Source of the DNA: an uncultured Methylomirabilota bacterium
GTDB taxonomy: Bacteria > Methylomirabilota > Methylomirabilia > Methylomirabilales > 2-02-FULL-66-22
Length of the DNA: 64,000 nucleotides
Assembly (NCBI GenBank): GCA_963705305.1
Contig: OY970067.1
Span: forward strand, 992,001-1,056,000
Reading direction: 5' to 3'
Of this stretch, positions 53,572-56,798 are shown piece by piece (position 1 is the first letter of the stretch; the number at the start of each line of letters is the position of its first letter). The notes beneath the pieces are model-generated. The model was given only the letters and a program-made list of their open reading frames with translations. It searched no databases and was not told where the DNA came from. A program made the translations under genes and the position numbers.

Positions 53572-54546
53572 CTACTCGCGCGGCGCCGGAAGCGGGATCT
53601 CCACCGGCATGCCGGGGGCCTTCAGCTTGGCGTCCACGAACGCCTGCATCTTGGCGATGTGCTCCGGCTTCAGGTGGGCGAACCGCCCCATCACCTTCAT
53701 GTACTCGCTGACCGGCTTGTACTCCTTCGGCTTGTGCTGGTACTTGTACTCGCCGTTCTCCCACTCGTAGATCGTGAACATCCCGGTCTGCACCGCCAAC
53801 CGCGCCAGCTCGATGGTCTTGTCCTCGGGGAACTTCCACCCCTTGGGGCACGGCGCGTGGATGTGCATGAAGCTCGGGCCCTTGTAGTTCAACGCCTTGC
53901 GGACCTTGTTCATGAGGTCCACCGGGTAGGCGATCGAGGCGGTGGCCACGTACTTCACGGCCGGGTGCCCGCCGATGACCAGCTGGGGCGGATCCTTGGG
54001 GAAGGTCTTCTTCCCTTCGGGAATCATCACCCCCGGCGGGGTGAAGGTGGTGTTCGCGCCGTACGGGGTCGTGGGCGAGGTCTGGATGCCTGTGTTGGCA
54101 TACGACTCGTTGTCGTAGCAGATGAACAGGCCGTCGTGCCCGCGGTACATCATGGCCGACATGGCCTGCAGGCCGATGTCCACGGAGCCGCCGTCTCCCG
54201 CCATCACGATCACGTTGGGAAGCTGCCCCTGCCACTTGCCCTTGCGGATCAGCACCTGGTAGGCCGCCTCGATGCCCGAGCCGACGGCGCCGCCGTTGGT
54301 GATCTGGGCGTGGATCCAGGGCACAGCATACGGGGTGCACAGGTAGCTGGAGTTGGCCACGTACATGCACCCGGTCGGGCCGACGAAGATGGTGTTCGGG
54401 CCGGCCGCCTTGGCCACCAGCTTGTACTGGAGGGCCGGGCCGCAGCCGGCGCAGGTGCGATGGCCGGGAACATAGTACTCCTCCCGAGGCATGTCCCGGA
54501 TGCGCTTGATCGCCGGGAGTTCCTGGGTCTGAACCGTTGTCGCCAT
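53572..54546 (-). CDS. oorB: Oxalate oxidoreductase beta (TPP-binding) subunit
   Basis: [42 protein letters not shown] and HAPCPKGW resemble Moorella OOR beta. Confidence 0.85.
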
Positions 54547-54630
54547 AGTGGACTCCTTTCTATTGCCTATTCCGACGCGTGAAGTTGTCTGCCTCGTTCA
54601 GGCCTTCACGTGATCTGCCATCCTGGCCGG

Positions 54631-55821
54631 CTACTCCTTCTCGAAGCCGACCCAGTGCGTCCGCTTGCAGGCCTTGCCGTCCTTGGCGGCCTTGGCCAGA
54701 TGCTTCGCCATGTACTCGAAGTGCTCGATCTCCACGACCTCGCCGCCCAGGCCGGCCATGAAGGAGGTCACCACCGGCCGCTTCGGCTGGTCGTACAGGG
54801 AGGTGCACACCTCGAACATCAGGCCGCCGCCCATGGTGGCGCCGCCGAACGAGGTCTGGGTCTCGACCACGCCCACTGCCTTCACCTTGCTGAGGGCCGC
54901 GGCCACCGCCTCGGTCGGCCAGGGGCGCACGAACCGGAGCTTGGCCATGCCGATCTTCACCCCCTGCTTCCGCAGCTTCTGGATAGCGGAGCGGGCGGTC
55001 GACGCATGCGCGCCCTGGATGAAGATGGCGTACTCGGCGTCGTCCAGCATGTACTCCTCGACGAAGGGGGAGTACTTCCGGCCGAAGATCCGGCTGAAGT
55101 CATCCAGGGCCTCCTTGATGACGGCCGGGACCGCCATCATGGCCTGTGCCCGCGCCAGCTCCAGGGCGTCGCCCTGGTCGGGGCGGATCTGGGGGCTGTG
55201 CGAGATGGGCTTCTTGGGATCCAGCCGGTGGTCCATCTTGAGGGGGGGCAGGAACTCGTCCACCTGCTTCTGGTCCGGCAGAACCACCTTGCCCGGGATG
55301 TGGGAGACGAAGTAGCCGTCCTGGCAGACGAACTGCGGCAGGTAGATCCGCGGGTCCTCGCCCACCCGGTAGTTGATCAGGTGGTTGTCGAAGGCCTCCT
55401 GCGGGTCCTCGGCCCAGCCCATGAGCCAGCCCATGTCGCGGGCGCAGAAGATGTCCGTGTGCTCCGACCCGAAATCGCCGGGCGGATCCAGGGTCCGGTC
55501 GGCCACCATCATCTGCAACGGCAGGCGGGCGCCGGCGATGGGGGAATAGACCTCGTACGCGTAGGTGCAGCCCACACCGGAGCTTCCGGTGAAGGCCCGG
55601 GCGCCGCAGGCCGAGGCGCCGTACACGACCGAAAGCTGCGCGTGCTCGCCCTCGGCATGCACGAACTCGGCGTCCAGCTCGCCATTCGCCACCAGCTTCG
55701 CCAGCTCCATCATCACCGCCGTGTAGGGGCGGATGGGATAAGAACTGATCACCTCAACCTTGGCGTACTTGGCCGCCTGGGCCGAGGCTGCGCATCCGCT
55801 GATCATCACTTCCTTCGCCAT
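54631..55821 (-). CDS. oorA: Oxalate oxidoreductase alpha subunit
   Basis: YPIRPYT (Arg in place of Thr of PFOR YPITP), EGEHAQLSVVYGAS and DRTLDPPGDFG. Confidence 0.87.
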   Translation of the reverse strand: MAKEVMISGCAASAQAAKYAKVEVISSYPIRPYTAVMMELAKLVANGELDAEFVHAEGEHAQLSVVYGASACGARAFTGSSGVGCTYAYEVYSPIAGARLPLQMMVADRTLDPPGDFGSEHTDIFCARDMGWLMGWAEDPQEAFDNHLINYRVGEDPRIYLPQFVCQDGYFVSHIPGKVVLPDQKQVDEFLPPLKMDHRLDPKKPISHSPQIRPDQGDALELARAQAMMAVPAVIKEALDDFSRIFGRKYSPFVEEYMLDDAEYAIFIQGAHASTARSAIQKLRKQGVKIGMAKLRFVRPWPTEAVAAALSKVKAVGVVETQTSFGGATMGGGLMFEVCTSLYDQPKRPVVTSFMAGLGGEVVEIEHFEYMAKHLAKAAKDGKACKRTHWVGFEKE

Positions 55822-55832
55822 GGTTTCCCTCC

Positions 55833-56159
55833 TTAGAACGGCTTCTCAAGTCGGACGACGCCATCCTCGAAATCCAGCTCGTGGGCCTTGGAGAGCGCCC
55901 CGTGTGTGCACTCGGCGACGCAGATCAGGCAGCCCTTGCAGTACTCGGCGTTCCACTCAACCTCCGTCCCTTCCTCGTTCAACTGCCAGCAGGCATCGGG
56001 ACAGTAGGCCACGCAGCTCAGGCACAGGTTGCACTCCTCCCGGTTGATGACCGGGCGGTAGATGCGCCAGTTGCCCGTGATCATCATGCGCTGCTCTTTC
56101 ACCGGCGCCGGCGTGCAGCCGGCGAACGGCACCCGCTTTTGCTCCAGAATTACGAACAT
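55833..56159 (-). CDS. 2x[4Fe-4S] ferredoxin-like (delta) subunit of the oxalate oxidoreductase
   Basis: TGNWR..RP; CNLCLSCVAYCP and CKGCLICVAEC. Confidence 0.85.
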   Translation of the reverse strand: MFVILEQKRVPFAGCTPAPVKEQRMMITGNWRIYRPVINREECNLCLSCVAYCPDACWQLNEEGTEVEWNAEYCKGCLICVAECTHGALSKAHELDFEDGVVRLEKPF

Positions 56160-56189
56160 AACCTATCCTCCTTTGGAAGAACGTGGGCC

Positions 56190-56798
56190 CTAGTTGAGGG
56201 TCTTCACCACGGCCTGCTCGTAGCCGCGCTTCAACGCTTCCTTGTTCGCGACCACCTGCTCCAGGCTGCCCAGCTTCACCAGGCCGGTGCCCTTGGCCAG
56301 GGCGCCCAGGATCGGGGCCGCCACGCCGGCGCCCAGAGAGGTGGCGTCAATGCCGCCCTCGGTTCCGGAGAAGTCGATGGTGCTCGAGCCGGCGATCCCG
56401 TCGGCATCCACGCACACGAGCGCCTTGAGCAAGTTCTTGTTGGGAACGAACTTCAGGATGTCCTCCGGCTTCCGGTTGGTGTTGACCACCAGGACGCCGC
56501 CCTTGGCCATCCCGAGCAGGACGTTCATCCCCTTCACGATGGCGTCGGTGACCAGCACCACCACCTCGGGATGCTTGTTCTCGTACTCGTAGCGCATCTC
56601 GATCTCTGCGTCGCTGATGCGCGCGTATTTCCGGACGGGGACGTTGACGCGGTCCGGAAGGTCCACGTAGTTGTCGAAGGCCTGGACGAATTTCCCTTCC
56701 TTCGCCCCGGCCAGGGCCAAGCCATTGGCGACGTCCCGGCCTTCCTTGTCCTTGACGACCCCCGATGTCCACACCGTAATTTCACGTACCTGAGCCAT
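56190..56798 (-). CDS. Gamma-type subunit of the oxalate oxidoreductase
   Basis: GKFVQAFDNYVDLPDRV.VP..KYARIS and LVVNT. Confidence 0.85.
   Translation of the reverse strand: MAQVREITVWTSGVVKDKEGRDVANGLALAGAKEGKFVQAFDNYVDLPDRVNVPVRKYARISDAEIEMRYEYENKHPEVVVLVTDAIVKGMNVLLGMAKGGVLVVNTNRKPEDILKFVPNKNLLKALVCVDADGIAGSSTIDFSGTEGGIDATSLGAGVAAPILGALAKGTGLVKLGSLEQVVANKEALKRGYEQAVVKTLN

Follow-up and report, generated by a model that had tools for sequence, protein, structure and literature searches.

Four genes of the oxalate oxidoreductase family

The window analysed here is a stretch of 64,000 nucleotides of contig OY970067.1, from an uncultured Methylomirabilota bacterium (assembly GCA_963705305.1). 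Positions 53572-56798 hold four intact open reading frames (ORFs), all on the minus strand and in the order gamma-delta-alpha-beta, which judged by their sequences are genuine members of the oxalate oxidoreductase (OOR) family. The gamma gene (56190-56798, 202 aa) encodes domain III, the delta gene (55833-56159, 108 aa) domain V with two CxxCxxCxxxC motifs for [4Fe-4S] clusters, the alpha gene (54631-55821, 396 aa) domains I-II and the beta gene (53572-54546, 324 aa) domain VI. These are the same domain blocks as in the OOR of Moorella thermoacetica (5c4i/5exd/5exe; NF045790-NF045792).

The Moorella enzyme (PDB 5c4i) served as the standard of comparison, with the pyruvate:ferredoxin oxidoreductase (PFOR) of Methanosarcina acetivorans (9bt4) as the runner-up. 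For all four genes 5c4i was the top PDB match by a wide margin over 9bt4. Alpha matched it with E 1.4e-151 and 508 bits (9bt4: 6.2e-67, 230 bits) and beta with E 2.5e-164 and 550 bits (runner-up: 1.6e-78, 268 bits). Gamma aligned with the Moorella delta chain 5c4i_B over residues 12-208 (E 1.5e-57, 197 bits; 9bt4 46 bits) and delta over residues 226-315 (E 1.6e-28, 102 bits; 9bt4 49 bits), and the two cover the two halves of that single chain. Identity to Moorella OOR, counted by hand, was 229/392 (58%) for alpha and 230/305 (75%) for beta. A first-pass annotation made from the sequence alone had stated that the beta subunit closely follows the Moorella enzyme, and had proposed the comparison with Moorella OOR and PFOR as a check; the statement is borne out, and the check puts 5c4i far ahead for every subunit.

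The family profiles gave the same picture. Alpha (NF045791, 566.6 > 500), beta (NF045792, 597.6 > 590) and gamma (NF045790, 242.8 > 230, profile positions 12-207) all exceeded the NCBIfam cut-offs for OOR, and delta took the remainder of NF045790 at 101.9 and exceeded that of TIGR02179 (72.4 > 60.05). All alpha and beta models for PFOR and 2-oxoisovalerate:ferredoxin oxidoreductase (VOR) stayed below cut-off (PorA_Arch 323 < 550; VorA-type 250 < 646). Because the OOR equivalogs are passed and the PFOR/VOR models are not, the earlier expectation that automated tools would label these genes porABDG no longer holds at NCBI, where alpha, beta and gamma are OOR by NCBIfam 20. It still applies to delta, which is labelled PorD, and to many deposited relatives, which are named pyruvate or transketolase enzymes; some are named OOR, including one Ca. 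Methylomirabilales and one Betaproteobacteria record. NF045791 has been used to exclude OOR from genome surveys (PMC13147460); annotation practice thus already knows the family.

Active site and phylogeny

In the alpha subunit YPIRP occupies residues 28-32 (55740-55726) and RTLDPPGDF residues 109-117 (55497-55471), and the numbering of Arg31, Arg109 and Asp116 is identical to that of Moorella OOR. The two motifs had been read before as the Arg/Arg/Asp signature of that enzyme, correctly as it turns out. The active site of Moorella OOR contains Arg31 (in YPIRP), Arg109 and Asp116, and CoA is unnecessary (PMC5020499); further OOR residues that have been named are Glu154 in the gamma domain and Asn143 in beta (PMC12654022). 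Glu147 of the window gamma corresponds to the plug-loop Glu154 and Asn151 of the window beta to Asn143, and thus all five residues named in the literature are retained. The plug-loop Glu was retained in 108/108 and the beta Asn in 97/97 other loci, and neither had played any part in retrieving the loci. Arg31, Glu59, Arg109, Asp116, Phe117 and Gln211 were retained in 120/120 other loci, the residue counts including only alphas and betas with 50% identity or more; Glu59, Phe117 and Gln211 presumably have active-site roles as well. Beta carries the GDG...N motif for thiamine pyrophosphate and Mg together with Cys32, Cys35, Cys60 and Cys233 for the proximal cluster, and delta has eight cysteines, all aligned with 5c4i; delta and beta together provide three [4Fe-4S] cluster sites. 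The window enzyme and Moorella OOR share eleven or more cluster cysteines, along with the five named residues.

The motif GxGxxG, which we take to spell the CoA P-loop, was present within the first 25 residues of none of the gammas (0/106), and a homodimeric PFOR encoded elsewhere in the window does carry it. The P-loop of domain III is where CoA is held (PMC8091585; PMC13768988). The CoA loop is missing from Moorella OOR and the window enzyme alike.

Quick IQ-TREE trees of alpha with 68 and 34 rows placed the window sequence inside an OOR-signature clade (SH-aLRT 99-100), apart from a sister clade and from PorA/VorA-like rows. Members of the OOR-signature clade came from Methylomirabilota, Tectomicrobia, Anaeromyxobacter, betaproteobacteria and actinomycetes, and a Moorella-like fragment (P0127) also belonged to it. 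Forcing the window alpha among 17 PorA/VorA-like rows was rejected (p-AU 3.3e-6). The phylogenetic check against PFOR/VOR put forward with the first-pass annotation, here carried out with no Moorella row, therefore places the window alpha outside the PorA/VorA-like rows.

In the sister clade, which is widespread, YPIRP (Arg31) and Arg109 are kept, but position 116 is Ala and the plug-loop Glu is missing. For this reason YPIRP by itself, judging from the alignments, does not diagnose OOR, and its earlier use as a mark of OOR has to be given up. One such sister enzyme is encoded in the host genome (G000:C1:605858-609419 = L001:8858-12420). It shares with the window enzyme Arg31, Glu59, Arg109, Phe117, Gln211, the beta Asn and a GntR gene at its head, and differs in Ala for Asp116, the lack of the plug-loop Glu, a fused gamma-delta subunit, an alpha identity of 46% and an NF045791 score of 419, below the cut-off of 500. 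The surrounding region (L001:8071-17077, G000:C1:605070-614076) has its own GntR gene and two oxlT genes, with a perfect FadR-type palindrome ahead of the first oxlT. At locus L161 sister-type and OOR-type genes lie side by side.

It might be thought that the genes encode an ordinary CoA-dependent four-subunit PFOR or VOR. Enzymes of the PorCDAB type, such as the M. acetivorans PFOR, have the same four-gene layout, order, fold and cofactors, gamma-delta-alpha-beta is the order of most four-subunit PFORs (PMC13768988), and many relatives are annotated in this way. However, PorCDAB enzymes have YPITP, a CoA P-loop and no plug loop, whereas the window enzyme has YPIRP, with Arg replacing the Thr, no P-loop and a plug loop. 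With the PorA_Arch and VorA-type scores under their cut-offs and the tree test as given above, this reading is extremely improbable. Moreover, the homodimeric PFOR lies 7 kb from the OOR genes (TIGR02176, 1868 bits), so pyruvate is already served. OOR is reportedly subject to suicide inactivation by pyruvate.

Several points weigh against assigning the window enzyme to oxalate. Its beta subunit clears the cut-off by just 7.6 bits; three other betas fall slightly under it (567.8-587.1) and one scores 439.3. The conservation of Arg31 and Asp116 is partly circular, since 80 metagenome loci were retrieved via patterns covering one or the other. No Moorella sequence was a row in the trees, and membership in OOR rests on the PDB and HMM scores and the motifs. 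The window alpha deviates at 4/152 conserved columns (V85C, I106V, Y194L, G209S) and has G56A beside Glu59, two changes adjoining Glu59 and Gln211. Equally many deviations at conserved columns occur in 16/110 relatives. Decay of the window copy is excluded by a dN/dS of 0.08-0.21 against three close relatives. On balance we consider it likely that the enzyme oxidises oxalate without CoA.

With thiamine pyrophosphate as its cofactor, the enzyme would oxidise oxalate and yield two CO2. As in Moorella, Arg31 and Arg109 would hold the two carboxylates, while Asp116 and the gamma plug loop would drive the CoA-free release of CO2. Two low-potential electrons would pass along the three [4Fe-4S] clusters to ferredoxin.

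Separate gamma and delta genes

In Moorella OOR domains III and V are fused, giving three subunits, whereas in the window they are encoded by separate genes, as had been noticed at first inspection. The gamma stop codon TAG (56192-56190) is followed by a 30-nt spacer, in which AGGAGGA (56166-56172, minus strand) lies 6 nt ahead of the delta ATG as the ribosome-binding site of a separate delta gene; comparable sites are found in relatives. The spacer is in frame in the window but in only 34/91 loci (window included), and the gamma stops across these 91 loci are TAA in 36, TAG in 30 and TGA in 25. Read-through of the TAG to yield a Moorella-type fused subunit is thereby excluded: stops and frames vary and delta has its own ribosome sites. 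The contig of one relative, in which the spacer carries a 4-nt insertion, speaks further against it. The split is genuine.

Gamma and delta were separate in 74/74 metagenome loci showing both domains and in 19/20 loci of a further set, the remaining locus being incomplete. Since every scorable metagenome locus has it, the four-gene layout is clearly common and the usual form in the relatives sampled, and the earlier impression that it is unusual finds no support. Fusion of domains III and V characterises the single enzyme studied so far; the sampled clade does not share it. The metagenome sample consists of the best 80 of at least 547 confirmed loci, ordered by similarity to the query, and fused gamma-delta forms are under-sampled for that reason. 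Such fusions do occur, in the Moorella enzyme and at the sister locus of the host genome. When 16 candidates were searched for longer, fused delta forms, none turned up, though this is weak evidence.

Distribution and significance

At E <= 1e-80 NF045791 matched 163/251 genomes of the phylum, only 16 of them over the cut-off, 15 from the genus of the host; three further genus genomes have frameshifted OOR copies. Operons with the OOR signature were also found in Myxococcota, Tectomicrobia and soil Actinomycetes. A DNA run from freshwater sediment (X1), which may be where the window came from, contained pieces identical to it. An RNA run from sediment (X2) yielded one contig of 3,593 nt with 224 differences (~94% identical), which reaches from beta through gamma into the end of cdc48; X2 contigs carry no information on strand, level or a single transcript. 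A caveat to this RNA evidence is that it consists of a relative's contigs, in a run that was found using the window stretch. The run covered both enzyme clusters and gave no cover of tct, gntR or most of the 20-kb sister region; missing cover in a relative's contigs proves nothing.

A literature search, which did not cover the original work on OOR (Pierce 2010, 2017; Gibson 2015, 2016; Chen 2018), found no study of OOR outside Moorella and no four-subunit OOR; it also found no report of oxalate use in Methylomirabilota. One review names OOR from Moorella only (PMC11045627), and a gut survey omitted OOR since information was too scarce (PMC8062136). As a kind of enzyme, OOR is already known. 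The four-gene form is common but unstudied, and here it occurs in a non-acetogenic host; what the locus adds is the physiology of the host, the question of the electron sink and a flavoprotein variant.

Surveys of oxalate degraders are built on oxc, frc and oxdC. An oxalate sink of the present kind would probably be missed by such standard marker-gene surveys. If the assignment is true, sediment bacteria that are non-acetogenic and lack oxc would mineralise oxalate anaerobically and gain electrons of very low potential. The four-gene form would also make a simpler test system, in which the ferredoxin subunit is open to removal or exchange. The Cdc48 partner described below and Asp116, present here and absent from the genome's sister enzyme, could be tested side by side.

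Operon context and substrate

The four genes belong to a conserved operon, gntR-cdc48-gamma-delta-alpha-beta. Its context was counted at 18 order-level and 80 metagenome loci, many of which end early. Directly upstream of gamma lies a gene for a Cdc48/VAT-type AAA+ ATPase (56843-59038, minus strand; CDC48_N; TIGR01243 758 bits, cut-off 802.65), which overlaps gntR by 4 nt and was found at 16/18 order-level and 46/80 metagenome loci. This ATPase accompanies OOR across phyla and is a candidate maturase or reactivase; it may assemble or reactivate the enzyme. The host genome has a second Cdc48 at C1:3980785, 51% identical.

The operon is headed by a regulator gene of the GntR/FadR family (59035-59811, minus strand; PF00392 and PF07729), present at 13/18 order-level and 41/80 metagenome loci. 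Ahead of it are a sigma-70-like promoter (59988-59960) and a FadR-type palindrome (59952-59942), both on the minus strand (59942-59988), the latter a likely autoregulatory operator. The search returned 2 sites against 1.2 in shuffles, which is weak alone; with up to 2 mismatches the palindrome lies ahead of gntR in 13/13 close relatives, where 0.085 per 260 nt would be expected by chance. The GntR protein might keep the operon repressed until oxalate is present.

Downstream of beta, on the same strand, follow genes for an importer of the tripartite tricarboxylate transporter (TTT) family (49394-52514): tctC (52514-51537, PF03401), tctB (51428-50946, PF07331) and tctA (50911-49394, PF01970). 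tctC occurs at 13/18 order-level and 15/80 metagenome loci. From its sequence TctABC is a candidate importer. Ahead of tctC, also on the minus strand, a small membrane-anchored leader-like ORF (52886-53347) has DPA near its end and weakly resembles (tblastn E 0.001-0.005) the leader of the second oxlT of the genome and two other genome sites.

An oxlT-like gene was found at 16/80 metagenome loci (mean distance 7.4 kb) and 5/18 order-level loci. TIGR04259 was passed by 11/13 of the oxlT-like transporters scanned, two partial ones failing; three actinomycete neighbours of the major facilitator superfamily gave no match to it. The adjacency of oxlT is the best evidence for oxalate that is independent of the enzyme itself. 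The host genome (5.65 Mb) has 2 oxlT copies over the cut-off, and oxalate might be imported via these or via TctABC. On the other side of the balance, the window operon lacks oxlT, both genome copies adjoin the sister enzyme, and the PDB matches of TctC name no ligand. No oxlT remnant was found between beta and tctC. A third oxlT-like gene of the host genome is in two pieces (G000:C1:220304-221848), its nearest relative being the oxlT that follows the OOR beta gene in genome G023.

The unassigned ligand of the TTT importer and the few substitutions close to the active site leave room for another small 2-oxoacid as substrate, such as glyoxylate or a dicarboxylic 2-oxoacid, or for an internal route that runs from glycolate through glyoxylate and has oxalate as its final step. 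Such schemes would fit the presence, 15-24 kb away, of GlcD/E/F-like genes and of genes for an aldehyde:ferredoxin oxidoreductase and a lactate/glycolate permease. Yet every OOR-specific residue is retained, oxlT adjoins OOR in relatives, and no match to glc, aldehyde:ferredoxin oxidoreductase or the permease was found in the limited flanks of 20 + 80 loci; an internal source of oxalate would leave the reaction of the enzyme unchanged. We therefore regard this alternative as quite improbable beside the oxidation of oxalate. The cluster itself (23778-38656) comprises the permease, the aldehyde:ferredoxin oxidoreductase, GlcD/E/F-like and LutAB-like genes, and could supply oxalate internally.

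A flavoprotein variant in actinomycetes

In 22/22 actinomycete loci of a species collection and in 3 metagenome loci the delta subunit has an insert of ~500 residues similar to NfnA/GltD. Against PRK12771 it scores 515.6 bits (cut-off 516), and the betas of these loci score 406, under the OOR cut-off. The insert suggests direct reduction of NAD(P)+. Operons with the FAD/NAD(P) module (L004-L020, L023-L027, e.g. L020:4891-6807, and L161, L162 and L166) may encode an oxalate:NAD(P)+ oxidoreductase. At the flavoprotein-variant loci of soil actinomycetes cdc48 was found in 0/20 counted.

Host physiology and electron sink

Encoded in the host genome (G000, 98.9% complete) are complex I, an aa3 oxidase together with alternative complex III, and two quinol-dependent nitric oxide reductases (qNOR). 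Acetyl-CoA synthase (PF03598) was not found in it, with positive controls, and was found in 3/21 genus genomes. The acetogenic use of oxalate by Moorella depends on the Wood-Ljungdahl pathway with this enzyme. No oxc gene over the cut-off was detected in the genus (0/21 genomes). A methanotrophic host is ruled out, with pmoA in 0/21 genus genomes and a positive control in 3/3 genomes of another genus. The host is a non-methanotrophic, non-acetogenic member of Methylomirabilota, and the proposal that OOR occurs here outside the acetogenic Firmicutes is upheld. It differs from Moorella also in being a diderm, and its operon adds the GntR regulator, the Cdc48 ATPase and the TTT importer.

Oxalate is a donor of sufficiently low potential for the reduction of ferredoxin, and its conversion to bicarbonate and H2 releases a little energy (formation energies give about -25 kJ/mol). 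Hydrogenases are numerous in the host genome: three group-4 [NiFe] enzymes, their nickel motifs intact, a group-3b enzyme and two Mvh/Hdr systems, alongside a complex of the Ehr type that lacks nickel. A 50-kb island (G000:C1:4499977-4550895) holds the group 3b, two group 4 (one with an FdhF-like gene), both Mvh/Hdr and hyp genes. As Rnf is absent from the host, ferredoxin has its most obvious outlet in the group-4 hydrogenases. Under anoxia these membrane-bound enzymes might drain reduced ferredoxin and conserve energy; the H2 would be released, or re-oxidised by soluble hydrogenases that feed complex I and, beyond it, oxygen, nitric oxide (NO) or the Mtr conduit. Of our proposals this sink is the least certain, and we put it forward tentatively.

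The FadR-type palindrome is also conserved ahead of one operon for a membrane-bound group-4 hydrogenase (L171:2444 = G000:C1:5296443). With up to 1 mismatch it was found at 6/8 relatives' loci (chance ~0.01 each); it is conserved at 2/6 hdrA loci too. This hydrogenase operator also occurs in G014, which has neither OOR nor its GntR, and co-regulation of OOR and hydrogenase is not established for that reason. A single regulon of OOR, oxlT and hydrogenases was rejected on the same ground, and because the host genome has 13 related regulators; it is left as a lead. A still wider picture can be drawn, in which OOR is a widespread oxalate sink that has been overlooked in anoxic soils and sediments, the host grows in a hydrogenogenic way not described before (2 CO2 and H2 from oxalate, by way of an ion-pumping group-4 hydrogenase sharing the FadR-type operator) and has a dedicated Cdc48 unfoldase, and soil Actinomycetes have a self-contained oxalate:NAD(P)+ version, its flavoprotein spliced into the ferredoxin subunit. 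As a whole it is unlikely to hold.

Alternatively, the same enzyme might deliver its electrons directly to respiration, from ferredoxin to the quinone pool (e.g. through the Ehr-type complex) and on to Fe(III) via the Mtr conduit, to NO or to trace oxygen. The first-pass annotation had pointed to an MtrB porin, and one is indeed encoded (MtrB/PioB, 63320-61164; TIGR03509 318.8 > 240), next to a DmsE-type decaheme cytochrome that runs past the window end (TIGR03508 202 > 192.2); both lie on the minus strand (61164-64000), and the genome has other multihemes. In seven genus genomes (G000, G013, G021-G025) mtrB lies 6-17 kb upstream of OOR on the same strand, and in the other genus genomes having both, the OOR contig ends before mtrB. 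The aa3 oxidase with alternative complex III, the two qNOR, the full complex I and the several multihemes also favour this route. Against it, there is no Rnf, and none of the 4 molybdopterin matches in the host genome reaches the cut-off for NarG or NapA. The mtrB and DmsE genes are set apart from the OOR operon by a short-chain dehydrogenase/reductase gene and a promoter, the synteny is among kin within one genus, no mtrB was seen within the flanks (up to 7 kb) of the 80 metagenome loci, and DmsE-MtrB modules are also capable of electron uptake. Respiratory coupling of oxalate oxidation is plausible, with hydrogen evolution as its rival; direct transfer to respiration seems to us somewhat unlikely.

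Elsewhere in the window, at 22052-23524 and 39371-41775, are genes for an octaheme cytochrome (multi-haem, like hydroxylamine oxidoreductase) and for a protein resembling subunit I of bd oxidase fused to a cytochrome c domain.

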